A stretch of 36,569 nt of DNA. Source: a virus (Duplodnaviria > Heunggongvirae > Uroviricota > Caudoviricetes). Shown here one piece after another: positions 268-36,569 of this stretch. Position numbers and translations under genes: made by a program. The stretch is from the IMG/VR virus record IMGVR_UViG_2721755726_000003; one strand, written 5' to 3'. Under the pieces are notes generated by a model that searched no databases, was not told where the DNA came from, and saw only the letters and a list, made by a program, of their open reading frames with translations. Every line of letters starts with the position of its first letter. Position 1 is the first letter of the stretch.

Positions 268-288
268 AAGCCCTCGCGTTGAGGGCTT
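268..288. terminator. bidirectional hairpin between convergent grxA and ybjM
   Basis: 8-bp GC-rich stem aagccctc/gagggctt with 5-nt loop, T-run downstream on plus strand; overlaps ybjM stop codon. Confidence 0.5.
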
Positions 289-665
289 TACTGATTTTTT
301 CTGTGCTGTGGTTTAAACAAACTACTGATAAATAAGAAACACAGTGCCCCCAGCGCACACCAGAACACCGCGCTTAGTAACCATGCCAGCTCTTGCCAGA
401 ATGAGCGCGTCGGTGAAAAAAACAGCCGCATAATGAGCATCGAACAGGGTGCCGCCAGCATTGCGCCAAACAGAGGTTTCAGGACTTCTCTACGCTGTGA
501 AAAGAAGCTGGCGACTGCTCCAGGAAGAATGAAAAATAGCAAGCCGATTTCAGGATGCCCGGCAGCCCGAAAAGCGCCTTTCATGTGCGTCGCCAGAAAA
601 AGGCACACCACAATGAAGAGGACAAAACAGCAGATTGCCCCCGCCCAACGTTGTTTATGTTTCAC
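288..665 (-). CDS. ybjM: inner membrane protein YbjM
   Basis: 125-aa hydrophobic multi-TM ORF; position between grxA and ybjL matches the E. coli locus. Confidence 0.8.
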   Translation of the reverse strand: MKHKQRWAGAICCFVLFIVVCLFLATHMKGAFRAAGHPEIGLLFFILPGAVASFFSQRREVLKPLFGAMLAAPCSMLIMRLFFSPTRSFWQELAWLLSAVFWCALGALCFLFISSLFKPQHRKNQ

Positions 666-934: not shown

Positions 935-2620
935 GTGAATATAAACGTCGCCGAATTGTTAAATGGGAATTACATTCTGTTATTATTTGTGGTCCTCGCG
1001 CTTGGGCTATGTCTCGGAAAGTTACGACTTGGTTCGATCCAACTGGGTAATTCCATTGGCGTTTTAGTCGTATCGCTGTTATTAGGCCAACAACATTTCA
1101 GCATTAACACCGATGCGCTTAATCTTGGCTTTATGCTGTTTATTTTCTGCGTCGGGGTCGAAGCCGGACCGAACTTTTTTTCCATTTTTTTTCGCGATGG
1201 GAAAAATTACCTAATGTTAGCACTGGTGATGGTTGGCAGTGCGCTGGTGATCGCCTTAGGGTTAGGTAAGCTGTTTGGCTGGGATATTGGCCTGACGGCC
1301 GGTATGTTAGCAGGCTCTATGACGTCGACACCGGTTCTGGTCGGTGCTGGCGATACACTGCGTCATTCCGGCATGGAAAGCAGGCAGCTCTCACTGGCAC
1401 TGGATAATCTGAGCCTCGGGTATGCCTTAACCTATTTAATCGGTCTGGTGAGTTTGATTGTTGGTGCGCGTTACTTGCCGAAATTGCAGCATCAGGACTT
1501 ACAGACCAGCGCCCAGCAAATCGCCCGCGAACGTGGCCTGGACACTGATGCCAACCGTAAGGTTTATTTACCGGTGATCCGCGCCTATCGCGTCGGCCCG
1601 GAGCTGGTGGCCTGGACCGACGGCAAAAATCTGCGTGAACTGGGTATTTATCGACAAACCGGCTGCTACATTGAACGTATTCGACGTAACGGGATTCTGG
1701 CAAATCCAGACGGTGATGCCGTGCTACAAATGGGCGATGAAATAGCGTTGGTAGGCTATCCCGACGCCCATGCCCGACTCGATCCCAGCTTCCGTAACGG
1801 TAAAGAAGTTTTCGATCGTGACCTTCTCGACATGCGTATCGTCACTGAAGAAGTGGTCGTTAAAAACCATAACGCTGTAGGTAAACGTCTCGCACAACTG
1901 AAGTTGACCGATCACGGTTGCTTCCTTAACCGCGTCATTCGTAGCCAGATTGAGATGCCGATAGATGACAACGTCGTGCTTAACAAAGGTGACGTTTTAC
2001 AAGTCAGCGGTGATGCCCGTCGCGTAAAAACCATCGCCGATCGCATCGGCTTTATCTCGATTCACAGCCAGGTCACTGACCTGCTGGCATTTTGCGCCTT
2101 CTTTGTTATTGGGCTGATGATCGGGATGATCACCTTCCAGTTCAGCACATTCAGTTTCGGCATGGGGAACGCTGCCGGGTTGTTATTCGCCGGAATTATG
2201 CTGGGCTTTATGCGTGCTAACCACCCGACCTTCGGTTACATTCCGCAAGGTGCATTAAGCATGGTGAAAGAGTTCGGCTTGATGGTGTTTATGGCAGGCG
2301 TTGGTCTGAGCGCCGGTAGCGGTATTAATAACGGCCTGGGCGCGATTGGCGGTCAGATGTTGATTGCCGGATTAATTGTCAGTCTTGTGCCCGTGGTTAT
2401 CTGTTTCTTGTTCGGTGCTTATGTATTGCGAATGAACCGCGCACTGTTGTTCGGCGCAATGATGGGCGCACGCACCTGCGCGCCGGCAATGGAGATCATC
2501 AGTGATACAGCTCGCAGTAACATCCCTGCGCTGGGCTACGCGGGCACCTACGCAATCGCCAACGTCCTGCTGACGCTGGCAGGGACAATCATCGTCATGG
2601 TATGGCCAGGATTAGGATAA
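935..2620 (+). CDS. ybjL: putative AAE-family transporter YbjL
   Basis: 561-aa ORF with GTG start, duplicated membrane domains flanking soluble TrkA-C-like region; recognised as YbjL. Confidence 0.9.
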
Positions 2621-2732
2621 AACTGAAGTTGCCCTGAAAATGAAATTTTTTTGCACAACCGCAGAACTTTTCCGCAGGGCATCAGTCTTAATTAGTGCCA
2701 CTGCTTTTCTTTGATGTCCCCATTTTGTGGAG

Positions 2733-2776
2733 CCCATCAACCCCGCCATTTCGGTTCAAGGTTGATGGGTTTTTTG
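2733..2776 (+). terminator. putative rho-independent terminator downstream of ybjL
   Basis: 10-bp stem cccatcaacc/ggttgatggg followed by TTTTTTG; loop is long (17 nt), so modest confidence. Confidence 0.4.
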
Positions 2777-2855
2777 TTGCCTGAAATTTAAGCTGTTTAA
2801 AATCATGATGTTAGAAACACTGTTTTTTAACGATGGCGACAAAATGGCGGCAGCG

Positions 2856-4265: not shown

Positions 4266-4747
4266 GACAGCAGCCCTCCCACCGTTTTACTGATATCGCT
4301 TAAGGCAGACGTTGCCGTGTCCTGCAGATTATTCAGTTGCGCACTGAGATCACCGAACATATCGGACAGGGATTCATCCACTCGTTTGAGCGACAGGGTG
4401 AACTCAATCCGGCGCGGCATACCGTCGCGGAAAAACTCCGTTTTAGTCTGATTCAGTCCCTCAATCACATACATGCCGTAAATCGTGCCGCTGCCTTCAA
4501 TCAGGGGCCATGCTTTCCCCTGTTCTGCCATCTGCTCCAGTGCCAGCAACGACAGCCTGCCGCCTGTTATTTCCGGCATAAGAACACCGGAAAGCGTCAG
4601 CATGTCGTTTTCCGGTCCCAGAAACTGCGTGGACGGACGTCGGTTTACCCGACTGTTTGCCGCATGTCGCCAGCTGCGTTGATACTGCAGTTCCTGATAC
4701 GGCACGGTGCGCAGCATAAACACGTACAATCCCAGCACCATCATCAT
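4262..4747 (-). CDS. U: tail protein U
   Basis: 161-aa ORF, P2 gpU-like; 4-nt overlap with D start. Confidence 0.8.
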   Translation of the reverse strand: MMMVLGLYVFMLRTVPYQELQYQRSWRHAANSRVNRRPSTQFLGPENDMLTLSGVLMPEITGGRLSLLALEQMAEQGKAWPLIEGSGTIYGMYVIEGLNQTKTEFFRDGMPRRIEFTLSLKRVDESLSDMFGDLSAQLNNLQDTATSALSDISKTVGGLLS

Positions 4748-7700
4748 GCGTCGTATCCCCCCTGATCGCTGTAGTTACTCCTGGCTTTTGCCTTCAGCCT
4801 GCGTTCACGTTCATCAAGCTGGCGTGCCACCTCCCGCGCAATATCCTGCGCACTTTGTCCTGGCTGCGTCTGAATGATGATCTGCGTCGGTGCCTCAATC
4901 CGTTGAACGGGCGGCACAGTGGCTGCGCGACTCACAATTGCTTCTCCACCTTTCGCGGGAAGTGCCAAAGGGTGCAACGGTGGAAGCTCTGCTGGCGCGG
5001 CAGCAACGCCCATCATTCCGGCAACAACGGCAGCCAGTGCAGCTGTATTTCTCCGGCTGGTCACATTTGCCGGGCCGTTAACAATTTCCGGCCCGTTTTC
5101 ACCGACGATGCCAAACTGCCCGCGCGGGATATACCCGCCGCTGTCATACATCCCCGCAAAGCCATATCCCCATGACGGAAAACCACCCGATGGCATCATC
5201 ACTTTACCGTCTGCATTCACCGTCGCAGGTTGCTGACGCGTCACGCTTTCCGGCAGTTTTGCCTTTGCGGCCTCTTTACTGACAATGCCGAGCTTCTCCA
5301 GCAACCAGGAAACGCCGGATTTCAGGGAGTCCAGCGGATGCATGACCATATTCAGCCCTTCCGCCAGTGCCTCCCCGAATCGCCGCCCCATTGCCGCTGC
5401 GCTCTGCAGTTCGGCAGAGGTCGACTTAACGGGCGTCAGCAGATCAGTAAACCAGCCCCACAGCGCCTGCACTTTGTCGCCAATCCACTGGAACACGGGC
5501 TTAAGCGGTTCGAACGCTGCACTGATGGGACCTGCCGCCGCTTTGAATCCTTCCACCACGCCACCGAGAAATGCGGTGATGGGTTGCCAGTATTTCCAGA
5601 CAACCAGCGCCACGCCCGCCAGTGCAGTAACCACAAGACCTATCGGACTGAGCAGAGCACCTAACAGACCAGATATGGCATACAGGGCAACGCGCAGCAT
5701 CGCCAGTGGACCAGATGCCAGTACTCGCAGCACCGTGCCTGCGGCGGCCAGTCCACCGCGCAGTACCGCCAGAGGATTCATAAACATCACAGCAACCGCA
5801 CGTAAACCGGATAATCCAGACCGCAAAAGTGCAACCGGCGCACCTGCTACAGTTTTCAGGACATTTCCCGTCAGTGATGCCGTGCGGCGCAAAGACGACA
5901 ACGGCGCAGTAAGTAAACCTGCGGCGTTGCCCGATGAAGCAAGCCCGCGTCGCAGCAGTGCCAGTGGTGCGCCAGCCAGCCAGGACAACGCGCTGCTGGT
6001 TCGAGTTACTGCTGCCGTAACGGAAGATAACGTTTTGATACCCAACACAGAGAATCCCAGACGGATCACTGCCAGCGGCCCCAGCACTGCAGCCAGCGCC
6101 ACCGCTAAGGTGCCGAGGCCGACGGTAACCGCAGCCACAACAGCCGATGCTTTCATCAGTGTGCCTGTCAGTTCCGGGTTAGCTTCCACCCAGCGACGCA
6201 ACGCCCCCGTGACGCTTTTCACCGTGTACAGAATATCCATCAGCGGCTGGCGCAGCGTTTCGCCCAGGCTGCTGAAGGTGTTCTGCGCTCCGGTTTTGAC
6301 CAGCAACCACTGCGCAGAAAGTGAATCCTTGTTAATGTCGGATTCTTTCTGCATGGAGCCGAGCGCATCATTGCCCGCTGTCAGTTTTAACTGACGCTGC
6401 AGTTCCGGCAGGTTGTTTGCCAGTTTCGCCGCGTCATCGCCAAACTCTTTACCAAACAACATAGTCATGGCAGACAGGCGCTTGTCCTGCGGCAGCGCGT
6501 TTACCTTCTCCAGCACGCGCTGGATGGTTCCCATCGCATCCTTCGTCATCTGCTTTTCAATCACTTCAGGATTGAGTTTCAGCAGATTCATCCCTTCAAA
6601 GAAACTCTTGCTTTGCATGGTGGCAATGGACAATTCACGCACCATCGCGTTTGCTGCACTGGCTGCAACCTCTGGCGCAGCGCCCAGTGTCAGGAAGGTG
6701 GAACCCAGCGCCGCCGCTTTACGATAATCCAGACGGTCAGCCACACCGCCCAGACGTTGCATCACATCAATGATGTCTGCCCCTTTCGACATGGCGTTAT
6801 CATCCAGATAGTTCAGCGCATCACCGAGCTGTTCAATATTGCGGGTGGGGATTTTGTAGAGCTGGGCGATTTTCCCCAGACTTTCTGACAGTTCATCCGC
6901 TGGCAGCTCAAAGGCTGTTGCCGCCTTTGCTGCCGTACTGGCGAAGGCCAGCAGGTCACGTTTCTGATCTTCCCAGCTGTCGTCAGGGTTTGCGACGTTC
7001 ATGCGCGCACCACCTTCAACCAGTGCAGCGAGGTCCACCGCACCGTTTTCCATCGGCAACTGTTCGCTGGCAGCCTTGATGGCATCCTGCATTTCATAAA
7101 AACGTGCAGTGCGGTTGCCATTATCGTCACGCAGACCATTGACCTGCTTTGCCACACCTTTCATGGCATCTTCCATGCTGGTATAGCTTTTTACTGCCGC
7201 CATCACTGGCGCACCCATTGCCAGCCCTGCAGCCGTGGTGGTGGCTCCGGCACCTGCAATACGATCACGCACCTCCAGCGAACGGGCATAACTGGCACGC
7301 GCTGCATTCATCCTGCGCTGAGCTTCCCCCAGTCGCTTCAGCCGCGCCTCCTGTTTCGAAAGTTCCTGGTTATAACGTGATGTTTCACGGGCTAAACGGG
7401 CAGTTGCTCCCGCATCGTCTTTCGCAGAAATTCCCGCCCGGTACAGTTCAGCACGCACAAGCGCCGTCTGCTGCTGCAGCTTTTTCTGGCGTTCTTCCAG
7501 GCGCTGAACAGCCAGCCGTTGACGGCCCAGAGCAACAACCTGACGTTGCGAAGGCGGCCCCATCGCTCCCAGTTCCTGACTGAGCAAATTTGCACGCTGG
7601 CGGGCATAGTTCAGCCTGTCGCCTAATTTCTGATTTTCTGCCTGCAGCTTTCGGAAGCTGTCCAGACTGCTCCCGGCCTGATCAAGCTGCTTTATTGCAT

Positions 7701-7821
7701 CGCGGGATTTTTTGACAGCAGCAGCCAGTTCTCTTGAACTGGCCTGCGCAGATCGAAATGGGCGGGTGAGCTTGTCAACCGCATTAAGAATGACCTGCAG
7801 ACGCAGGTTGTTATCACTCAT
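4744..7821 (-). CDS. T: tail tape measure protein
   Basis: 1025-aa ORF with coiled-coil N-terminal half and Gly/Ala/Leu-rich repetitive hydrophobic C-terminal half; position after E/E'. Confidence 0.9.
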   Translation of the reverse strand: MSDNNLRLQVILNAVDKLTRPFRSAQASSRELAAAVKKSRDAIKQLDQAGSSLDSFRKLQAENQKLGDRLNYARQRANLLSQELGAMGPPSQRQVVALGRQRLAVQRLEERQKKLQQQTALVRAELYRAGISAKDDAGATARLARETSRYNQELSKQEARLKRLGEAQRRMNAARASYARSLEVRDRIAGAGATTTAAGLAMGAPVMAAVKSYTSMEDAMKGVAKQVNGLRDDNGNRTARFYEMQDAIKAASEQLPMENGAVDLAALVEGGARMNVANPDDSWEDQKRDLLAFASTAAKAATAFELPADELSESLGKIAQLYKIPTRNIEQLGDALNYLDDNAMSKGADIIDVMQRLGGVADRLDYRKAAALGSTFLTLGAAPEVAASAANAMVRELSIATMQSKSFFEGMNLLKLNPEVIEKQMTKDAMGTIQRVLEKVNALPQDKRLSAMTMLFGKEFGDDAAKLANNLPELQRQLKLTAGNDALGSMQKESDINKDSLSAQWLLVKTGAQNTFSSLGETLRQPLMDILYTVKSVTGALRRWVEANPELTGTLMKASAVVAAVTVGLGTLAVALAAVLGPLAVIRLGFSVLGIKTLSSVTAAVTRTSSALSWLAGAPLALLRRGLASSGNAAGLLTAPLSSLRRTASLTGNVLKTVAGAPVALLRSGLSGLRAVAVMFMNPLAVLRGGLAAAGTVLRVLASGPLAMLRVALYAISGLLGALLSPIGLVVTALAGVALVVWKYWQPITAFLGGVVEGFKAAAGPISAAFEPLKPVFQWIGDKVQALWGWFTDLLTPVKSTSAELQSAAAMGRRFGEALAEGLNMVMHPLDSLKSGVSWLLEKLGIVSKEAAKAKLPESVTRQQPATVNADGKVMMPSGGFPSWGYGFAGMYDSGGYIPRGQFGIVGENGPEIVNGPANVTSRRNTAALAAVVAGMMGVAAAPAELPPLHPLALPAKGGEAIVSRAATVPPVQRIEAPTQIIIQTQPGQSAQDIAREVARQLDERERRLKAKARSNYSDQGGYDA

Positions 7822-7993
7822 CGTTGGCCCCGCTTCTCTGAATCGCTTTATACCGCCATTCCAGCACTTCGGTCAGCGGCATAACGTCAGTAACGGATGG
7901 CGGCCAGTGAAAAATGGTGGCGATATCTGCCACCAGATCGTCAACCGTCAGGCTGTCGGTAAACCGGCAAGCACCGACTTCTTCAACAAAAAA
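7814..7993 (-). CDS. E': E' extension of tail assembly chaperone E+E' made by -1 frameshift (fusion product spans 7814..8250)
   Basis: Slippery heptamer TTTTTTG on coding strand (plus-strand 7987..7993); -1 frame hand-translated as VEEVGACRFTDSLTVDDLVADIATIFHWPPSVTDVMPLTEVLEWRYKAIQRSGANDE, stop TGA at 7814..7816 overlapping T start; about 146 aa total. Confidence 0.7.
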   Translation of the reverse strand, partial: FFVEEVGACRFTDSLTVDDLVADIATIFHWPPSVTDVMPLTEVLEWRYKAIQRSGANDE

Positions 7994-8250
7994 GTGACAA
8001 CCTCAACCGACATGGCAGTGAGATCTGCCGGGTCCATCTCTGCAATTTCCTGTGCAGTCAGTGCCGGACTGGAGATGCGGGGGATCACGGTCATCATCGC
8101 GTTTACATCCATATCCATAATGGCCTGCAGGCGTGTACCGCGCAGCGCACCGGACTGCGGTTTACGCAGCACAATTTCGGTGATTTCTGTTTTACCGCGC
8201 TTGATGGGGGTATCCAGTTGAATGGTCTTTTCAGTCTGCTTATCGCTCAT
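7948..8250 (-). CDS. E: tail assembly chaperone E
   Basis: 100-aa ORF upstream of T, P2 gpE-like; contains slippery TTTTTTG near 3' end. Confidence 0.8.
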   Translation of the reverse strand: MSDKQTEKTIQLDTPIKRGKTEITEIVLRKPQSGALRGTRLQAIMDMDVNAMMTVIPRISSPALTAQEIAEMDPADLTAMSVEVVTFLLKKSVLAGLPTA

Positions 8251-8304
8251 TTTGCTGTCCTGTCAATTGGGTTCTGGCGCGGTATCCCGCGCCGTTCAGA
8301 TATA

Positions 8305-8820
8305 TCAGAGGCCGAGGGCGTTGCGGTGCGCTTCCATCAGGTCCACACCGTCCACAATTTCCACCATGTTGATAAGGTCCACTTCATAGAGCACCTCACC
8401 ATTGATGGTCAGCTTCGCGTAGCTGTTGGTACTGGTCACTTTGGTGGTGTTGCTTTCGCCCGTCTTCCACTCGCCGGAATCCACTTCTTTGTGACGTCCA
8501 CGCACGACAAGCTCCACGGCCTGCACTTCCCCGGTATCGTCACGCTGAATAGAGCCGGTAAAGCGCAGCTGGATGCCATCCACCGTGGCTTTACCCATCT
8601 GTTTAAACAGCAGCAATTCAGTACCACCAATGGAAAATTCTGTATCCAGCGCACTGTCATCAAGCCCCAGATCCACATCCACCGCACCCGGCATTCCGCC
8701 GCCGCGATACTTCTCATATTTGCGGGTAAATTTCGGCAGCGTCAGCGACTCAACGATCCCCTGCCAGTTGTTCCCGTCGTTAAACAGGTTCAGGTGTTTT
8801 AATTTGCGTGGTAAAGCCAT
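8305..8820 (-). CDS. FII: tail tube protein FII
   Basis: 171-aa ORF, P2 gpFII-like, ATG start. Confidence 0.85.
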   Translation of the reverse strand: MALPRKLKHLNLFNDGNNWQGIVESLTLPKFTRKYEKYRGGGMPGAVDVDLGLDDSALDTEFSIGGTELLLFKQMGKATVDGIQLRFTGSIQRDDTGEVQAVELVVRGRHKEVDSGEWKTGESNTTKVTSTNSYAKLTINGEVLYEVDLINMVEIVDGVDLMEAHRNALGL

Positions 8821-8829
8821 GTTGTCCCC

Positions 8830-10002
8830 TTACGCGCTGACCTGGCTGGCGAAATTCACCAGGTACTGATCGGTGATGCGCTGACGCAGCATCAGGTTTT
8901 CAAGTGGCGGCACTGGCGTGTAGTCGTAGTCGATGGTGAGTTTTCCGGCTTTCAGCGTGTCTTTGTCGTTCACCGACTCATCCAGCCAGCAATCACCACC
9001 AATGAGATAGCCCTGACTGACCAGGCTGCGCATTTTGGCGCGGATACCTTCGATAATGTCGCGGGCCAGCGACGGGTTAAGCGGTTTATCCACCGCCCAC
9101 ATGTGTGCTTCTGCCATCGTGTCCATCAGCACCTGCGCCGTGCGGGTGTAGTTTTCGAAGGCAAAGAGCGGGTCATCACTCAGGCAGCGGGAACCCCAGA
9201 AGCGGAAACCGTCTTTACGCACAAGCGTGGTGACGTCGTTCTGGTTCAGCAGACCTGCATCGGTTGCCGGGTCCTGCAGATCCCAGAACACATCTGCAGA
9301 AATTCCGGTGACACCGTTCACGCCCACGTTGGACAGGCTTTTGTGCCATCCGGTCTGCTCGTCAATTTTGGCGCGCAGACCAAGCGCACGGGCGGTGGCA
9401 TATGCCGTTGCTTCGGCATTCAGCACCGTGTCCCAGCCAGTAAAGTCAGGCCAGATCAGCATCCCTTCGCGCTGGCTGAAGTTTTCGCGGTAAGTGATCG
9501 CCTCCTGCACTGTCTTGCAGCCATACGCTGACAGGTAAGCAAATCCACGCAGGCTTTGCGCCACGCTCAGCAACTCAGTAGCTACCGCCTTGGTGTCGTG
9601 GCCTGGCACGCCGAGAATGCGCGGTTTAACGCCGAGCTGTGACTGGGCAGATAACAGGGCTTTCATACCTGTTTTTTTACCTTCAACAGTCACTGCGCCG
9701 ATGATATTGGTCGTGGTTTCGTCTTCCGTTTCACCCTGCGGCACACGCACAACAATGGTCACGGGTTTTGCCTGGTCAGCGATGGCATCCAGCGAACGGG
9801 CCAGAGTACCTGACTCACCCGCTTTACCGCTGGCAGTCAGCACATCAGTGATCAGCACGGGTTTATTAAGAGGAAACATTTTTGCATCGGCATCATCGCC
9901 CGTGCAGACCATACCCACGATGGCGGTGCTCACCGTGGTAATAGATCGGGTGCCTTCGTTGACTTCAACAACGCGCACCCCGTGGTGGTAATCCTGAGCC
10001 AT
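8830..10002 (-). CDS. FI: contractile tail sheath protein FI
   Basis: 390-aa ORF, P2 gpFI-like, AGGAGG Shine-Dalgarno upstream of ATG. Confidence 0.9.
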
Positions 10003-10144: not shown

Positions 10145-10711
10145 TCAGGGGGATTCATTGATCTTATTTGCCGGAAATTTTCTATAAATGGTAGAAACGC
10201 CTACATCAAAAATCAGTGCAATACGCTGTCTTGATTCTCCGGCCTCGAGTAAACGCCCAATCTGTGCCCACTGTTCGGTGGTCAACTTAGGACGGCGTCC
10301 ACCTACTCTGCCTTTGGCACGAGCTGCAGCCAGCCCTGCCCTGGTACGTTCAACTATCAGTTCGCGTTCCATTTCAGCCAGGGCACCCATGACATGAAAA
10401 AAGAAACGGCCCATTGGGGTACTGGTATCAATACTGTCAGTCAGGCTTCTGAAATTCACACCACGCTGGCGCAACTCTTCTATCAGCGTAACAAGATGCC
10501 GCATACTGCGCCCCAACCTGTCCAGCTTCCAGACAACCAGCGTGTCTCCTGACGATAGTGTCCTGAGTAGTTTTTTCAGCCCCGGTCTGTCGGACTTAGT
10601 GCCACTGATTTTGTCCTCAAAAATCCGCTCACATCCCGCGCAGTTCAGTGCATTACGTTGCAAATCGGTGTTCTGGTCATTTGTTGACACGCGTACATAG
10701 CCAATAAGCAT
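10145..10711 (-). CDS. serine DNA invertase (Hin/Gin/Cin/Pin family)
   Basis: N-terminal MLIGYVRVSTNDQ catalytic-serine motif, resolvase fold and C-terminal HTH; start taken at third codon of track ORF (GGGGGA SD 6 nt upstream). Confidence 0.9.
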   Translation of the reverse strand: MLIGYVRVSTNDQNTDLQRNALNCAGCERIFEDKISGTKSDRPGLKKLLRTLSSGDTLVVWKLDRLGRSMRHLVTLIEELRQRGVNFRSLTDSIDTSTPMGRFFFHVMGALAEMERELIVERTRAGLAAARAKGRVGGRRPKLTTEQWAQIGRLLEAGESRQRIALIFDVGVSTIYRKFPANKINESP

Positions 10712-10778
10712 GATCATCCCCCTGAATAAAAACCGGAGATGATGCCAGTTAGCTGTTACCTCTGCATTTTCTTAAACG

Positions 10779-10804
10779 TTGGTTTGGGAGAAGCGGCAAA
10801 ACGG
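10779..10804. repeat. left inverted repeat and crossover site of invertible tail-fibre segment
   Basis: 26 bp ttggtttgggagaagcggcaaaacgg, perfect reverse complement of 12286..12311; nearby aaacgttggttt resembles gix/hix-type core. Confidence 0.8.
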
Positions 10805-11152
10805 GACGTGGGAACAGGGGAAAATCAGATACCGGATATGGTTTCATTTAGTGGTGTGAGGGATTTTTATGGAAAACAACTTTTGCCAGGAGGGTTGATA
10901 CTCCAGTGGCTGACGATTCCATCAAGTGCAGCAGTCAAAGCTGTAACACTGGATAATGGTAATTATCAGCTGTCAGGCTATAAATGGCCCCAGTCATTTG
11001 GTGTCCTGTTTGCTGTGTTTGCCACAAAAGTTTCTGGCTCGACTAACGAAGCATACGCAATCTCAGTTAATCGTCACTCTACCGATGTAATTGTCACCTG
11101 GAATGCCCGTAAGGCTGATGATGTCCATATTTTAGGAATTGGGAAATTATGA
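10779..11152 (+). CDS. alternative tail fibre C-terminal exon (silent orientation)
   Basis: Plus-strand frame encodes [20 protein letters not shown]..., matching the H crossover motif; no own start needed, would fuse to H after inversion. Confidence 0.7.
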
Positions 11153-11568
11153 AAATGAAATGGTCCCCATCTGTTCAGGGATTTTTCTCTGAAAACAACA
11201 GCGATATTCCCGATGATGCTTTCGATATTGAAGATGCTCTTTATTATGAACTTATGAATGGTCAGAGTACGGGGAAAATTATTATCAATAGCCCGGATAA
11301 CTACCCTGTACTTACTGAATATCCAGCGAAGACACATGAACAGGAAATAGCTGAAGCGGAGGGAATGAAAAATATACTTATTGAACAGGCCAACGATTAT
11401 ATGAACAGTAAACAATGGCCTGGTAAAGCGGCTATTGGCCGGCTGAAAGGTGAGGAACTGGCACAATATAATTTGTGGCTGGATTACCTGGACGCACTGG
11501 AACTGGTCGATACTTCCGGTGCGCCAGATATTGAATGGCCTACACCTCCGGTAACTCAGGCCAGCTAA
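11149..11568 (+). CDS. tail fibre assembly chaperone (alternative set)
   Basis: 139-aa ORF, ATGA overlap with alternative fibre end, C-terminal ...[11 protein letters not shown] motif shared with the minus-strand chaperone. Confidence 0.75.
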
Positions 11569-11935
11569 TCTCAGGAGCCGTCGAAGTGTCGACGGCTTTT
11601 ACTTCTTTTTTGTAGTCTATCCAGGCAGATAGTTTTTCTTTATCTGTACTGCTGATATCACCAAGCATTAATTCCACCCGCCAGTCAGCTGTGACATTAT
11701 CGGCATGAGCAAGTAACTGCATTCGCTGATTTTCAGCACGTGCGACATAATCAATCGCCGGAGATTTCAGTACCGGTAAACCATTTTCATCTGACGTGAT
11801 TAATTTCCCCCCTTCCTGCTGTCCGGCAATTAATTCATTGTATAAGTCTGTACTTATCTCAACAATGTCAGCAGGCATGTCGCTGTTTATACCATCAAAG
11901 AAAAAACCATTAGTCGATTTTGAGAAATAAATCAT
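11540..11935 (-). CDS. G: tail fibre assembly chaperone (expressed orientation)
   Basis: P2 gpG-like ORF directly after H stop; start taken at internal Met (MIYFSK...) rather than track start 11965. Confidence 0.75.
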   Translation of the reverse strand: MIYFSKSTNGFFFDGINSDMPADIVEISTDLYNELIAGQQEGGKLITSDENGLPVLKSPAIDYVARAENQRMQLLAHADNVTADWRVELMLGDISSTDKEKLSAWIDYKKEVKAVDTSTAPEISWPELPEV

Positions 11936-11943
11936 AGATATAC

Positions 11944-13359
11944 CTATACACCGATTGCTACCCAAAAACAGGACCTTTCATATTTGACAATTTCTCCCTG
12001 AGATATACCGCCAACAATTATATAGAACTGTGATTTGCTGATATCAGAACAGTTCGCTATGCCCATTGCAGATATACCAGCCACCGACGTTGTATGTGGC
12101 ACAGCCAACAGCGCAAGTGAACGATTTGGGAATGTTACCGGGTAAGTCACCGTATAGTTTGATGCTCCACTGACAATACCCCACTGAATAATCAGACCTG
12201 AAGGGAGTTTTTGAAAACCCGTTGATGAAAGTGAACTGGCAAACGCCGCCATATCCGGAATTTGGTTTTGCTCATTACCTACATTCCGTTTTGCCGCTTC
12301 TCCCAAACCAAGGTATGTGAGAAGACCAGCTACATCCTTTCCACTCAAATTGGTAAGCGTATTGTCCAGCGGTTGTTTACCTGCCAGCGCATTAAGCATT
12401 GTCGTGGCAAAGTTCGGATCATTCCCCAGTGCCGCCGCCAGTTCGTTCAGTGTATCCAGTGCAGCAGGTGCAGAACCCACCATTCCTGCAATCGCCGATT
12501 TCACAAAAGCCGTAGTGGCAATCTGTGTATTGTTGACCGACTGCGCCGCCGTGGGGGCTGTTGGCGTTCCGGTGAGTGCCGGACTCGACAACGGTGCTTT
12601 TAGTGCCAGCGCATTGTTAATGGTGGTACTGAAATTCGGATCATTGTTAATGGCTGCGGCTATTTCTTTCAGCGTGTCCAGCGTGGCTGGCGCACCATTA
12701 ATAAGGGCCGTCAGTGCCGCCTGTACAAACGCAGTGGTCGCAACCTGCGTGGTATTATTCCCCGCCGCTGGCGTTGGCGCTTTGGGGGTTCCGGTAAATG
12801 TCGGGCTGGCTTTTGGCGCGTACTGTGAATGCGGGTCCGGTGCGGCAAGATGTTTTGCCATCTGATCATCCGCGTACACCTTCAGCTCCAGTGCCTTGTC
12901 ATCCACATACTTGCGGGTTGCCAGCACTACAGCAGGGTCGATTTTCAGGGTGATATTGTCCGTGCTGCTGGTAATCAGCACCATGCGCACGGTCTGAGTG
13001 CGCCCGCTACCTTCAGCCAGTTGCGGCTTATAGCTTTCCGGGCAGTTGCCCACGGCAATCAATGCCCCGGACTCATCAAACAAGCCCACTTCACGTATCC
13101 ACCAACCGCCCTCGTTTTCAGGGATCACCTGTTCGGCAATAATCTGGCTGCTGTTCTGCGGGTCGATATAAAGCATATTCAGCGCAGCCCGGCGTTTCTC
13201 ATTTACCAGTGCCGTCTGCTTTGCGTCCGGCGTTGGCAATACTCCACCGCCATCGCCCACCGCCATATGGGTAATTTTTAGCGGCACACCGAGCGCGGCG
13301 GCGCTGGCAAGTTTCGCCGCGCCAATATCCGTCAGCAGGGTATAAAATTTTGTGCTCAT
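11944..13359 (-). CDS. H: tail fibre protein H
   Basis: 471-aa ORF with conserved P2 gpH N-terminus, tandem about 70-aa repeats, variable C-terminus inside invertible segment. Confidence 0.85.
   Translation of the reverse strand: MSTKFYTLLTDIGAAKLASAAALGVPLKITHMAVGDGGGVLPTPDAKQTALVNEKRRAALNMLYIDPQNSSQIIAEQVIPENEGGWWIREVGLFDESGALIAVGNCPESYKPQLAEGSGRTQTVRMVLITSSTDNITLKIDPAVVLATRKYVDDKALELKVYADDQMAKHLAAPDPHSQYAPKASPTFTGTPKAPTPAAGNNTTQVATTAFVQAALTALINGAPATLDTLKEIAAAINNDPNFSTTINNALALKAPLSSPALTGTPTAPTAAQSVNNTQIATTAFVKSAIAGMVGSAPAALDTLNELAAALGNDPNFATTMLNALAGKQPLDNTLTNLSGKDVAGLLTYLGLGEAAKRNVGNEQNQIPDMAAFASSLSSTGFQKLPSGLIIQWGIVSGASNYTVTYPVTFPNRSLALLAVPHTTSVAGISAMGIANCSDISKSQFYIIVGGISQGEIVKYERSCFWVAIGV
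12286..12311. repeat. right inverted repeat and crossover site of invertible tail-fibre segment
   Basis: Perfect 26-bp inverted copy of 10779..10804; lies inside H coding sequence at the LGLGEAAKR motif. Confidence 0.8.
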
Positions 13360-24649: not shown

Positions 24650-26059
24650 TTACTCATCTACTCTGATTTTTTGTTTTTTATTATTTTGAGTTAAGACATT
24701 TATGGTAATAGATGTATACGGATGAAAGTCAGGCACTATACTTTTAACCTCTCCATTTTCAAGAAAATGATGTGCTATTGAAGGAAATAAATCAGGATCT
24801 ACAGGATATTTAGCATTAGGATTATGATACATATTTAAACCTTCTGCCCATGTTTCTGTAATATCGCCTTCTTTCACTTCAAAACTAAATGCTGCTGGAT
24901 ATAATGCCTCTGGGTCATGATCATGGCAGTAACCACTCCTAAATAATCTAAGGTCACTTCTTCCAAAACCAGCCAGTTTTCCCATCCGATTAAACTTCGA
25001 TATAGTACCACTATTAGAACTAAGGACGGCCGAAATATTTTCAGACTCATCCAAGAAGAAAAAGCCTGAAGGAATTTCCTTTTTCTCAAATTGATGCGAT
25101 ATAATTTTCTTAGTTGCTAAACTGTAACATCCATCTTCAGATTTAACATGCTCATAGCGAATACCATAAAGATACTGCCAAAGTGCACTATGGGACCAAA
25201 TCATAGAGTTTGGTTCATGAAAATCAGCAATTGCGAAAATTAAAGGATTCCCCTTAACATGTTCTAGATCCCAGTATCGAGTTTTCTTTTTCAGTTTAGA
25301 ATAGAGAGAACTTCCAAATTTAATCGGCATATAATTCTCTATTTTCTCTAGCAATTCTTCCTTACTTTTAGGTTCAGATAGCATTTCAGATGATTGATTA
25401 ATATCATTCCCTGTTGGATTAACCGTTACAGCTTCAATGCAAATAGTATTACCATACTTACGTGCCACATAATCAGGGGCATTAAACTGCCTATCTAGCC
25501 AAAAGTGTTCCTCTCGTAAATATGCGAAAAGATATAACTCCCATAGCCGGGCATCAAAACCTGTTGTCTGAAACTGCTCTATAAAATTCCCGTCGACATC
25601 CTCAAAATGATTCATCATTTCCTTGATTATCCCTGTTGCAGGCGACCAGTTCGCGTATTTACCAAATAATGAAAAATGATGATGAAGTTTATCTGGTGTA
25701 ACTATAGGTGTGAATAAATCCATTGCTTTATAAGTTTCATCACCTTGTGGAAATACTTTTACGTTTAATTTAGTATGCTTCCGCATTAATTTCTTTAGTT
25801 TTGCTCGTGCAGAATTCATTTCTGAAACACTAGTAAATAGGTCAATACATCTATATCTCCCACTTAAGTCTCTTGCTAAAACAATACCGCTATAATCTTC
25901 ATCGATTTGATCCAATAATAGTGCCCCTAGCAGGAACTCTCTCGGACTACAGTACCACTCAAACTCATAGCCTAAAAGTTCAGTATTTGGCATTCTGGTC
26001 CAATCAACAAAAGCATTAAACCTCTCTTTACTCATTTTTTTTATATCAAGAAAAGACAT
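24650..26059 (-). CDS. hypothetical 469-aa protein, AT-rich accessory gene (candidate defence/exclusion cargo)
   Basis: Long uninterrupted ORF, ATG start with GAGGT SD, visibly AT-rich against GC-rich phage core; no family recognised by eye. Confidence 0.75.
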   Translation of the reverse strand: MSFLDIKKMSKERFNAFVDWTRMPNTELLGYEFEWYCSPREFLLGALLLDQIDEDYSGIVLARDLSGRYRCIDLFTSVSEMNSARAKLKKLMRKHTKLNVKVFPQGDETYKAMDLFTPIVTPDKLHHHFSLFGKYANWSPATGIIKEMMNHFEDVDGNFIEQFQTTGFDARLWELYLFAYLREEHFWLDRQFNAPDYVARKYGNTICIEAVTVNPTGNDINQSSEMLSEPKSKEELLEKIENYMPIKFGSSLYSKLKKKTRYWDLEHVKGNPLIFAIADFHEPNSMIWSHSALWQYLYGIRYEHVKSEDGCYSLATKKIISHQFEKKEIPSGFFFLDESENISAVLSSNSGTISKFNRMGKLAGFGRSDLRLFRSGYCHDHDPEALYPAAFSFEVKEGDITETWAEGLNMYHNPNAKYPVDPDLFPSIAHHFLENGEVKSIVPDFHPYTSITINVLTQNNKKQKIRVDE

Positions 26060-32826: not shown

Positions 32827-33768
32827 ATGTCAACTAATAAAATCACATTTCGCCATATTGAAGATCATCTGAAAGCCATGGTCATGCAGAATCGAGGAGG
32901 GCAAAAAGTCATTGAGAGAATACTCATGGCCTATGGTTTCAAATCACGCCAAGCATTCTGTAACCACCTTGGTATTTCACAAAGTACAATGGCTAACAGA
33001 TATGCACGCGATACCTTCCCTGCTGATTGGGTTGTTATATGTTCAATGGAAACTGGCGCATCAATCGAATGGTTAGCATTTGGTTTAGATGCTGAAGAAG
33101 GAGTGCCAGTTCCTTCGCCAGAACGGCATGCTGAAAAACAGTCTGCAGATGAATTTTGCAATGAAGTTCACACCCCCACGATAAAGTTCGATAATGAAAA
33201 CCACATGGATTTCACTCGAGGGGGTAAAGCAGCAATAGAGCGAATTGTTAAGGCTTACGGTTACAAAACGCGCCAAGCCTTAGCCGATCACCTTGGTATC
33301 TCAAAAAGCACATTAGCTACACGATACATGCGAGACATTTTTCCGGCAGACTGGATCATCCAATGCTGTTTAGAAACAGGAGTGTCTCTCGAGTGGTTAT
33401 CTTTTGGTAAGGGGCATTCCAATCAAACAAAGCTAAGTGGGTTGCTTACATTAGACTGCTATGATCTACGTGACGGCAAACTTACTGATCAAAGAGAATT
33501 AATCGTTTCGAGCGAAATTTTACCTCAAAATTTAAAACATCCCTATATAGTTAATTCCGCAAATGATTCATATATCATTAGCAAAGAGGAGTATCTTAGC
33601 GATGGTCTATGGTTAGTATCTATTAACGGAGAATTTACTTTTAGAGACATATTTAAACTTCCAAACAATCGCATCCGCGTTGAAAACACAAAATATAGCT
33701 TTGAATGCGATAAAGAAGATTTGGAATTTAATAATAAAGTTAAAGGAATAATTAGAAAAAGGGTTTAA
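32827..33768 (+). CDS. cI: CI immunity repressor with tandemly duplicated N-terminal DNA-binding domain
   Basis: Two about 67-aa repeats (residues 22-88 and 130-196) each resembling the 186 CI N-terminal domain, then a C-terminal domain. Confidence 0.7.
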   Translation: MSTNKITFRHIEDHLKAMVMQNRGGQKVIERILMAYGFKSRQAFCNHLGISQSTMANRYARDTFPADWVVICSMETGASIEWLAFGLDAEEGVPVPSPERHAEKQSADEFCNEVHTPTIKFDNENHMDFTRGGKAAIERIVKAYGYKTRQALADHLGISKSTLATRYMRDIFPADWIIQCCLETGVSLEWLSFGKGHSNQTKLSGLLTLDCYDLRDGKLTDQRELIVSSEILPQNLKHPYIVNSANDSYIISKEEYLSDGLWLVSINGEFTFRDIFKLPNNRIRVENTKYSFECDKEDLEFNNKVKGIIRKRV

Positions 33769-33770
33769 CA

Positions 33771-34820
33771 ATGAGCTTTACGAAAACTATTGAATTTGCA
33801 AACTATACCTTAAATTTTGGAGAGGACAAAGTTCTCTTAGATGCTTTTGATTGCATTGTTTTTCCTTCATTTTTCGCACAAAAATACGTTAGAAAATTTA
33901 AAGATACAGAATATTTCTTTACTGACACAAAAATTATTACGTTAGATACTACAGATTCAGATTTTATTGGTCCTATAGTTCCAACAATTGCATTGTGTGG
34001 CCGCATTATAAAAAAGACCATATTTAAACGAGATCAAATATTTCAAGATGGTCAATTAATTCGAGATCACAGGACGCTAGAAAGTCACCCCAGCTCTATT
34101 TTTATTCTTATGCTTAATGAGCACAGATTAATGCTTTGCAAAGAGGTTTCTGGAGCCCCTACCCTAGAAGAATTTGAAAATACTAGCAAGTATTGCCTTG
34201 CACAGCGATATAATTCTTTTGTGGATTACGAAGTAAAAAAAAATAAAAGAATTAGAAAGAAAAAATCATACATTGATCGACTGTATAAAAAAGATATTTA
34301 TCGTAAACTAGGAGCCCCCAAATTACGGGTTACCCCCTTAACAGACCCAAGATCATTGAGCAATTTTGTTGAACTCTTTTCTGTTGTTAATAGATTATCA
34401 ATTGAGTTATTGCCAACAAATAGTGAAAATATATCTCTTGATGGCTTCTGGAGGAAAATTGAACAAGAAAAAGAAGAACTTAATAGTAGTAAAGCTCAAT
34501 TAGTATACACAAATAAAAATGAAGATGGTTTAAATTCTGAGGCCGTCATTCAAAAAACAACAAGTGCAACCCGAATGGCCAACTCTAAAGTAATTATCAG
34601 TGGTAAAGATGAACACGGAGCAAGGCTATCAGGGAATAATGATAGTTTTACTCTAAAAGCATCAAGGCCACAACTTAGTTCTGATTTGGAAAGAGCTGCT
34701 CAAGAGGCGTATTCTGCATTCACAGAATTAAAGGATGAAGGAAATATTATTATTCCAGAACGTGAAGATTATACTAAAATTTTTTCCAAGTTAACATCAA
34801 TAATTTCTAGGTGGCTATAG
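33771..34820 (+). CDS. hypothetical 349-aa soluble protein, component A of cI-linked accessory cassette
   Basis: ATG 2 nt after cI stop; AT-rich; Lys-rich central segment; no recognised motif. Confidence 0.7.
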   Translation: MSFTKTIEFANYTLNFGEDKVLLDAFDCIVFPSFFAQKYVRKFKDTEYFFTDTKIITLDTTDSDFIGPIVPTIALCGRIIKKTIFKRDQIFQDGQLIRDHRTLESHPSSIFILMLNEHRLMLCKEVSGAPTLEEFENTSKYCLAQRYNSFVDYEVKKNKRIRKKKSYIDRLYKKDIYRKLGAPKLRVTPLTDPRSLSNFVELFSVVNRLSIELLPTNSENISLDGFWRKIEQEKEELNSSKAQLVYTNKNEDGLNSEAVIQKTTSATRMANSKVIISGKDEHGARLSGNNDSFTLKASRPQLSSDLERAAQEAYSAFTELKDEGNIIIPEREDYTKIFSKLTSIISRWL

Positions 34821-34821
34821 T

Positions 34822-35427
34822 ATGAAATATACATTCAACCCAGAAGATCTGACCAAAGAGCGATCTTTGCATGATGTTTACAAATTAACTAAAAAAATAA
34901 AGGTCAATTCATTTGACTTTTATTTCACATTATTGTTAGTGATATTATTATCTATTAATGCTTTTTGTCTATCTTCATCACCAGAGTTAATTTCATCTAT
35001 TAGACAATGGACACCTTTAGTATTCGGATTCACTACAACAACATTAGGTTTTTTAATTACTGGATTTACAATATTTGCAACCATAAATAAACCTGAACTT
35101 TTCCTTTCATTAATGGAGTATAAGCATCCATTATACGGGATAAGTTACTTAAAATATGTTTATGGTGTATTTATGAGAGTATTTATATATTTCATATTTT
35201 GGTCTGTTATCTATCTTTTAGTCCTTCTTTTCGGGCAAGAAAATGGATTGGCTACAAAATTACTCAGAGCCTTAATGTTTTCTCATTGCACTAAAGTTGT
35301 TGGAGTTCAAATACTATATATACTCGTAGGAAGCAGTGCAGTGTTCCTTGTATTAACTTTAAAAACTTTCCTGTTCAATATTTATGCTATGTTAATGCAA
35401 TCTCTACGCTGGGAAGTAGAAAGATAA
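34822..35427 (+). CDS. hypothetical 201-aa membrane protein with four predicted TM helices, component B of cI-linked accessory cassette
   Basis: ATG 1 nt after upstream stop with AGGTGG SD; four hydrophobic stretches of about 20 residues; AT-rich. Confidence 0.7.
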   Translation: MKYTFNPEDLTKERSLHDVYKLTKKIKVNSFDFYFTLLLVILLSINAFCLSSSPELISSIRQWTPLVFGFTTTTLGFLITGFTIFATINKPELFLSLMEYKHPLYGISYLKYVYGVFMRVFIYFIFWSVIYLLVLLFGQENGLATKLLRALMFSHCTKVVGVQILYILVGSSAVFLVLTLKTFLFNIYAMLMQSLRWEVER

Positions 35428-35516: not shown

Positions 35517-36569
35517 ATGGCAGTACGAAAACTCACCACAGGAAAATGGCTATGCGAATGTTACCCCGCGGGACGTAGTGGACGTCGTGTGCGTAAACAA
35601 TTCGCCACCAAAGGTGAAGCTCTGGCTTTTGAGCGTCACACGATGGAAGAAACCGAAGCAAAGCCCTGGCTGGGTGAATCAGTGGATCGTCGAACACTGA
35701 AAGACGTGGTTGAGCTATGGTTCAAACTACATGGTAAATCTCTGACAGCTGGGCAGCATGTCTATGACAAATTGCTGTTGATAGTTGACGCTCTGGGCAA
35801 TCCCCTTGCAACCGATCTCACCTCTAAAATGTTTGCCCACTATCGAGATAAACGCCTGACAGGAGAGATCTACTTCAGCGAAAAATGGAAGAAAGGAGCA
35901 AGCCCGGTCACCATTAACCTGGAGCAAAGCTATCTTAGTAGTGTTTTTAGCGAACTATCCCGCCTGGGCGAATGGTCGTATCCGAACCCACTGGAGAACA
36001 TGCGAAAATTCACCATCGCAGAAAAAGAGATGGCATGGCTTACCCATGAGCAGATTGTTGAATTACTGGCTGATTGCAAACGTCAGGACCCAATTCTGGC
36101 ACTGGTAGTTAAGATATGCTTAAGCACAGGCGCACGCTGGCGAGAAGCCGTAAATCTTACTCGTTCACAGGTGACCAAATACCGAATTACCTTTGTAAGA
36201 ACGAAGGGGAAGAAAAACAGAAGCATCCCTATCAGTAAAGAGCTTTACGAAGAGATCATGGCGCTTGATGGGTTCAATTTCTTCACAGACTGCTATTTTC
36301 AATTTTTATCCGTGATGGAAAAAACGTCTATCGTGCTCCCTCGCGGTCAACTCACACACGTTCTGCGCCATACGTTTGCAGCGCACTTCATGATGTCGGG
36401 TGGAAACATCCTGGCCTTACAAAAAATTCTCGGACATCACGATATAAAAATGACGATGCGTTACGCACATCTGGCACCGGATCATCTGGAAACGGCGCTC
36501 CGTTTCAATCCTCTGGCAACGCTGCCAAGTGGCGACAAAGTGGCGGCAGCGGTTGGCATTACCCCGTAA
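35517..36569 (+). CDS. int: tyrosine integrase (P2/186 family)
   Basis: 350-aa ORF with C-terminal R...H..R...Y catalytic region (HVLRHTFA...MRYAHL); stop codon is last 3 bases of window. Confidence 0.9.
   Translation: MAVRKLTTGKWLCECYPAGRSGRRVRKQFATKGEALAFERHTMEETEAKPWLGESVDRRTLKDVVELWFKLHGKSLTAGQHVYDKLLLIVDALGNPLATDLTSKMFAHYRDKRLTGEIYFSEKWKKGASPVTINLEQSYLSSVFSELSRLGEWSYPNPLENMRKFTIAEKEMAWLTHEQIVELLADCKRQDPILALVVKICLSTGARWREAVNLTRSQVTKYRITFVRTKGKKNRSIPISKELYEEIMALDGFNFFTDCYFQFLSVMEKTSIVLPRGQLTHVLRHTFAAHFMMSGGNILALQKILGHHDIKMTMRYAHLAPDHLETALRFNPLATLPSGDKVAAAVGITP

Follow-up and report, generated by a model that had tools for sequence, protein, structure and literature searches.

Gene E of a P2-like prophage carries a highly probable programmed -1 frameshift site for synthesis of the tail chaperones E and E+E'

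Gene E of the P2-like prophage analyzed here very probably contains a programmed -1 ribosomal frameshift site, from which, judging by the sequence, two tail chaperones are predicted to arise: the 100-aa protein E and the 145-aa fusion E+E'. The gene is located in a stretch of viral DNA of 36,569 nucleotides (IMG/VR record IMGVR_UViG_2721755726_000003), which is referred to as the window. A first-pass annotation of this DNA had proposed a -1 frameshift at the heptamer TTTTTTG, producing E+E' ahead of the tape measure gene. Homology of the -1 product, conservation in related phages and gene order all support this proposal, and the site could be assigned to the minus strand, which the annotation had left unspecified. 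The features of the region are as follows.

8258..8261, minus strand: probable Shine-Dalgarno (SD) sequence AGGA of gene E, 7 nt 5' of the ATG, inferred by sequence inspection
7948..8250, minus strand: gene E, zero-frame tail assembly chaperone of 100 aa, with the ATG at 8250..8248 and the stop codon TGA at 7950..7948 (ORF list and Pfam/PHROG matches)
7987..7993, minus strand: slippery heptamer T_TTT_TTG within the E codons ACT-TTT-TTG (residues 86-88), the proposed site of a -1 tandem tRNA slip
7948..7986, minus strand: dual-coding overlap, in which the last 12 E codons and the stop codon (frame 0) coincide with E' codons 1-13 (frame -1), as deduced from the translations
7814..7987, minus strand: E' extension in the -1 frame, 57 sense codons from GTT (G 7987 being read again) to TGA 7816..7814
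join(8250..7987, 7987..7814), minus strand: predicted E+E' coding sequence (CDS), 145 aa
7814..7821, minus strand: ATGAGTGA, which contains the T start codon (7821..7819) and the E' stop codon (7816..7814) and forms an ORF overlap of 8 nt

The 3' end of E reads GTC ACT TTT TTG TTG AAG and thereby places the heptamer in X_XXY_YYZ phase. The ACT TTT TTG that had been noticed near the end of the gene was found as codons 86-88, and T_TTT_TTG at 7993..7987 is the sole in-phase X_XXY_YYZ heptamer within E. Re-pairing after a slip would exchange UUU for UUU in the P site and UUG for UUU in the A site, which is the phase that tandem slippage calls for. The -1 frame is closed until 8005..8003 and open from 8002 to the TGA at 7816..7814. 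A shift after TTG appends 57 codons with the sequence VEEVGACRFTDSLTVDDLVADIATIFHWPPSVTDVMPLTEVLEWRYKAIQRSGANDE to the first 88 residues, resulting in a fusion of 145 aa. The first-pass annotation had given 58 codons for the extension, which is correct only if the stop codon is counted, and about 146 aa for the fusion, which has to be corrected to 145. It had also described the TGA of the extension as overlapping the start codon of T. The two ORFs do share 8 nt, but the TGA itself sits 2 nt past the ATG of T (7821..7819) without touching it. As had been pointed out, the extension is missing from the ORF track; an ORF list with a cut-off of 30 aa contains only a GTG-started 39-aa piece (7933..7814) from the E' region.

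Both parts of the predicted fusion belong to known tail protein families. E matched the Pfam family Phage_TAC_7 (PF10109; E=1e-18, 67.5 bits vs. a cut-off of 25, residues 9-88), which is described as 'tail assembly chaperone proteins E, or 41 or 14', as well as phrog_103 (E=4e-44). The E' extension alone matched the Pfam family Phage_P2_GpE (PF06528; E=4e-19, 68 bits vs. a cut-off of 23) and, in addition, phrog_1756 and phrog_6416. In 419 phage records, a tblastn search with the fusion matched two segments that lie in neighboring frames. NCBIfam held no model matching E or the E+E' fusion, and a sequence search against solved structures gave no match. The genes next to E/E' were identified as follows.

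4744..7821, minus strand: gene T, tail tape measure protein of 1025 aa (TIGR01760 tape_meas_TP901, E=2.4e-92; Pfam PhageMin_Tail)
8305..8820, minus strand: gene FII, tail tube protein of 171 aa, directly upstream of E (Pfam Phage_tube, E=8.8e-60)
8830..10002: sheath gene

The product of gene T is presumably the client of E and E+E'. The gene order sheath, tube, E/E', tape measure T, gpU and gpD equals the order of the P2 FETUD operon, and the element that harbors gene E is a P2-like prophage (Peduoviridae, Wadgaonvirus/Fels-2 type). In P2, a -1 shift at TTTTTTG leads to a 91-aa E and a 142-aa E+E', as stated in a passage of PMC3091744 that cites Christie et al. 2002 and Xu et al. 2004. When the P2 fusion was rebuilt from a P2 record by the shift rule applied to the window, products of 91 aa and 142 aa were obtained, matching the published sizes. 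The window fusion aligned with P2 gpE+E' at 48% identity over 139 residues, gapless across the junction (E=2e-50). The order FII, E/E', T and this alignment bear out the P2-type tail-chaperone arrangement that had been recognized in the first reading of the sequence. Comparison of the extension with P2 E' had been suggested there as a check, a lack of similarity being named as the outcome that would speak against the frameshift. Similarity was clearly present: the 57-residue extensions of the window and of P2 are 54% identical (E=3e-23), in line with the PF06528 match.

To follow the arrangement through the family, E and E' domains were located in 323 loci, comprising the window and 322 related loci from phage records and viral contigs, with HMMs built from our own alignment. 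Relative to E, E' occupies the -1 frame in 321 of the 323 loci. Two loci, both with indels, were considered as candidates for alternative recoding and rejected. The first, L267 (IMGVR_UViG_2839734502_000005, 394-805), has a 1-nt insertion between heptamer and E' that its sibling contig L290, from the same genome, lacks; E' thereby falls into frame 0 and is preceded by a stop codon. In the second, L096, E' seemingly lies in frame 0 and E is disrupted. The two loci probably represent decayed copies or errors of assembly. An in-phase X_XXY_YYZ heptamer within the E/E' overlap was present in all 310 complete loci, and in 303 of these its end coincided exactly with the end of the E-domain HMM match. 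Clustering at 60% identity resolved 18 lineages. Fifteen of them carry TTTTTTN, where N is mostly G and otherwise A, C or T, while the remaining three possess the canonical heptamers CCCTTTC, AAATTTT and GGGAAAG at the equivalent place. TTTTTTG also occupies the equivalent column in P2, Fels-2 and others, so that conservation of the slippery site in relatives, the second check that had been suggested, was confirmed at the same alignment position. Furthermore, the overlap sequence ATGAGTGA was present in 79 of 80 close relatives.

The slip site is kept by selection beyond the requirements of the protein sequence. Among 70 distinct close relatives with 80-97% identity, the third bases of ACT and TTT were invariant (70/70), and the only exchange at TTG was to TTA, in five of the 70. 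Third-position entropy in the same relatives reached 1.36 bits at Thr65 and 1.61 bits at Thr78, and ranged from 1.05 to 1.40 bits at the flanking upstream Val codons. The pattern of variation follows the proposed change of frame. On the 5' side of the site, 75 of 85 polymorphic sites fell on third positions of the E frame. On the 3' side of the E stop codon, polymorphism peaked at the third position of the -1 frame (30 of 42, vs. 8 and 17 at the other two positions), and in the dual-coding overlap between these regions variability was low at all three codon positions. The -1 frame was free of stop codons in all 70 relatives; both other frames contained stops in all 70. The heptamer as such carries less information. 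TTTTTTG occurs 17 times in the window, compared with 11.3 +/- 3.2 copies in shuffled sequences, so the motif alone is not beyond chance; at the rate of the window, about 0.015 in-phase copies are expected in a gene of 100 codons. The site gains its significance from the homologues of its -1 product and from being conserved among relatives, not from the heptamer itself.

The same fusion protein could in principle be encoded by a different route, namely transcriptional slippage, in which RNA polymerase adds an extra U at the T6 run and a fraction of the mRNAs encodes E+E' in one frame. The site is a homopolymer of six T, and of seven in some relatives, among them ST11-VIM1phi8.4 and a Vibrio phage, and insertion of a single U would yield a product identical to that of the -1 frame. 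However, six T are short for efficient polymerase slippage in enterobacteria. The non-homopolymeric CCCTTTC, AAATTTT and GGGAAAG found in three divergent lineages at the equivalent position also favor tandem tRNA slippage over polymerase stuttering. Moreover, the T run is always in X_XXY_YYZ phase, and the P2 event was published as a translational frameshift (PMC3091744). Altogether, transcriptional slippage is a very unlikely origin of E+E'.

A separate small gene for E', with translation of 39 aa from GTG 7933 and no fusion, corresponds to the annotation in RefSeq and several phage records, which contain a 120-nt CDS termed 'GpE family phage tail protein' at this place. The window, P2 and several relatives do indeed have an ATG or GTG there. 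The codon is not conserved as a start, however, since non-start codons replace it in Ralstonia (GCC), ST16-OXA48phi5.4 (GTT), Vibrio (TAC) and Mannheimia (ATT), and inspection of the sequence ahead of GTG 7933 revealed no SD sequence. In addition, similarity to P2 in the -1 frame extends upstream to the heptamer, covering fusion residues 89-106. Missing ribosome binding site, variable codon and upstream similarity together make initiation at GTG 7933 unlikely. As the -1 frame is also open back to the in-phase heptamer in 310 of 310 loci, expression of E' as a gene of its own is hardly credible. Finally, a functionless coincidence of heptamer and open -1 frame, for which only the abundance of TTTTTTG in the window could be cited, is effectively refuted by three results: the -1 product has homologues in Pfam and in P2, variation among relatives is patterned by codon position, and the arrangement is conserved throughout the family.

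Programmed -1 ribosomal frameshifting would proceed in the following way. Most ribosomes would read E to the stop codon at 7948 and produce the 100-aa protein. A minority would slip when the P site holds tRNA-Phe paired with UUU and the A site holds tRNA-Leu paired with UUG; each tRNA would move back by one base, so that the pair re-pairs with UUU UUU. These ribosomes would go on to translate the 57 E' codons and terminate 2 nt inside gene T, releasing the 145-aa E+E'. By homology with P2 and analogy with gpG/gpGT of lambda, the shared E domain is expected to coat or bind the tape measure protein T and the E' domain to recruit the tube protein. A low, fixed shift frequency would set the ratio of E to E+E' that is required for correct tail assembly. 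For the window phage, we infer production, frequency and role of the fusion from P2 (48% identical) and lambda.

An RNA stimulator is apparently not needed for the slip. Stimulatory elements are common but not obligatory at -1 frameshift sites, and none was supported here among downstream structures, SD-like sequences and Rfam families; Rfam gave no match in the E/E' stretch. A candidate hairpin (GUCGGU..ACCGAC) 8 nt past the heptamer was rejected, as its stability did not stand out from shuffled sequences (z = -0.62 and -1.03). Variants of this hairpin in relatives break pairs, and neither compensation nor covariation was detected. Upstream of the heptamer, at a distance of 6 nt, the sequence GAGGU displayed anti-SD pairing above that of other windows of the same gene across the 18 lineages (median percentile 0.11, Wilcoxon p = 9e-4). 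As an SD-like stimulator it was likewise discarded, since the effect was gone after synonymous resampling with fixed amino acids (median percentile 0.42, p = 0.25; 0.65 in this lineage). GAGGU is explained by the Glu-Val codons and hence has no support as a separate signal. The lack of supported stimulators agrees with a report in which structures downstream of the site are described as absent in P2 and in the Burkholderia phages KS5, KS14 and KL3 (PMC3091744).

A terminator-like element was observed inside E' on the minus strand (7935..7915; 7910-7935 with the U run). It consists of UGGUGGC-AGAUAUC-GCCACCA followed by UUUUU and forms a perfect 7-bp stem with a 7-nt loop that starts 13 nt after the E stop codon (-12.2 kcal/mol, z = -3.85). 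In the 70 close relatives the arms are invariant, but the U run varies (ATT/ATC). P2 and most lineages lack the hairpin, and its candidacy as a family-wide signal was dropped after synonymous resampling (median percentile 0.47 over 17 lineages, p = 0.80; 0.08 here). There is only a slim chance that the hairpin and U run serve as a weak transcription attenuator or as a translational barrier melted only by frameshifted ribosomes. If so, expression of T-U-D in this lineage would be tied to the frequency of frameshifting.

Several other regions of the window were characterized along with the tail operon. The region 10145-13359 contains an invertible tail-fibre segment resembling the Mu G or P1 C host-range switch; the segment carries an alternative fibre C-terminus and two Caudo_TAP fibre-assembly genes in opposite orientation. 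A 469-aa protein encoded on the minus strand at 24650-26059 matched the anti-phage defence protein PD-T7-1 (PADLOC, E=1.3e-196) and contained no Pfam domain; its gene sits between the capsid/packaging genes and the replication gene gpA of the prophage. Two adjacent ORFs of 349 and 201 aa (33771-35427, plus strand) lie between a CI-type repressor and the integrase. Neither gave a Pfam or PADLOC match, and PHROG yielded only a weak match of unknown function for the first; a role as cargo or in defence is possible. Positions 1-2778, at the left end of the window, are bacterial chromosome. As tail gene D begins about 400 nt beyond the sRNA gene rybB, the prophage appears to be integrated at or beside rybB. 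The corresponding features are listed below.

288..665, minus strand: ybjM
935..2620, plus strand: YbjL-like permease
2700..2778: sRNA gene rybB (Rfam, 105 bits)
10717..10145, minus strand: serine invertase (Resolvase and HTH_7) beside the inverted repeats
10767-10841 and 12249-12323: inverted repeats of 75 nt, 79% complementary
10739..11152, plus strand: alternative fibre C-terminus inside the invertible segment
13359..11944, minus strand: fibre gene
32827..33768: CI-type repressor
35517..36569: integrase, running past the end of the window

The 437-nt stretch that comprises E/E' is widespread. It was present in 995 of 5426 complete E. coli genomes, i.e. in about one in five, and at an identity of at least 99% in 452 records. 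In all eight genome records listed, RefSeq names a separate 'phage tail assembly protein' and a 'GpE family phage tail protein' CDS and no fusion (for example NZ_CP025881.1, 2444365-2444801). The frameshift arrangement is real but ordinary, already described and a textbook feature of P2-like phages. For two decades the mechanism has been known from P2 and lambda. No new biological question arises from its presence here. The main gain is a correction of the annotation, in which the two separate ORFs given in RefSeq and most phage records are replaced by the 100-aa E and a likely 145-aa E+E' fusion. The corrected annotation is useful for proteomics searches and for the engineering of P2-like phages or tailocins: if the T run were removed by a synonymous 'clean-up', tail assembly would probably be abolished.

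The closest well-studied counterpart is P2. In P2 and in the window, TTTTTTG occupies one alignment column at the end of the E domain (motif x-F-L), the shift has the -1 direction, E/E' is located between the tube gene FII and the tape measure gene T, and the E' extension has 57 residues. In both, the E' stop codon region overlaps the T start by 8 nt, the overlap being ATGAGTGA in the window and ATGAGTAA in P2. The two differ in sequence (48% identity) and in length: E comprises 100 aa here and 91 aa in P2, the zero-frame tail continues for 12 codons past the site instead of three, and the fusion, which is deduced here from the nucleotide sequence, has 145 instead of 142 aa.

Fels-2 (STM2699 / STM2697.1), a Salmonella phage of the Peduoviridae, is even closer to the window, with a protein that is 87% identical and with the same heptamer and lengths (100 and 145 aa). 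The Fels-2 record already states that gpE+E' arises by translational slippage. Escherichia phage 500465-1 and Klebsiella phage KP12 share 99.8% DNA identity with the window over the region. In the former (gp38/gp39), likewise a member of the Peduoviridae, the only annotation of E' is a 39-aa 'tail protein' of its own, and no frameshift product is given. Burkholderia phages Mana and Musica, on the other hand, carry a joined CDS annotated as 'tape measure chaperone frameshift product'.

The -1 frameshift in E. coli dnaX takes place at A_AAA_AAG, with an SD-like element upstream and a hairpin downstream. It shares with E/E' the tandem -1 slippage on an X_XXY_YYZ heptamer and the enterobacterial host. 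It differs in its stimulators, which are without support at the E/E' site.

In lambda, as in the P2-type system, the gene for the two chaperone forms is situated between the major tail gene and the tape measure gene. The lambda system differs from the P2-type system by its slippery site, G_GGA_AAG, and by a non-contractile tail. The G/GT mechanism of lambda has been described together with its ratio of 30:1 (PMC5009743). According to the same source, the tape measure protein is bound by the short form and the shared domain, and the tail tube subunit by the extension; the ratio is important for assembly. By analogy, E and E+E' may be functional counterparts of lambda gpG and gpGT.
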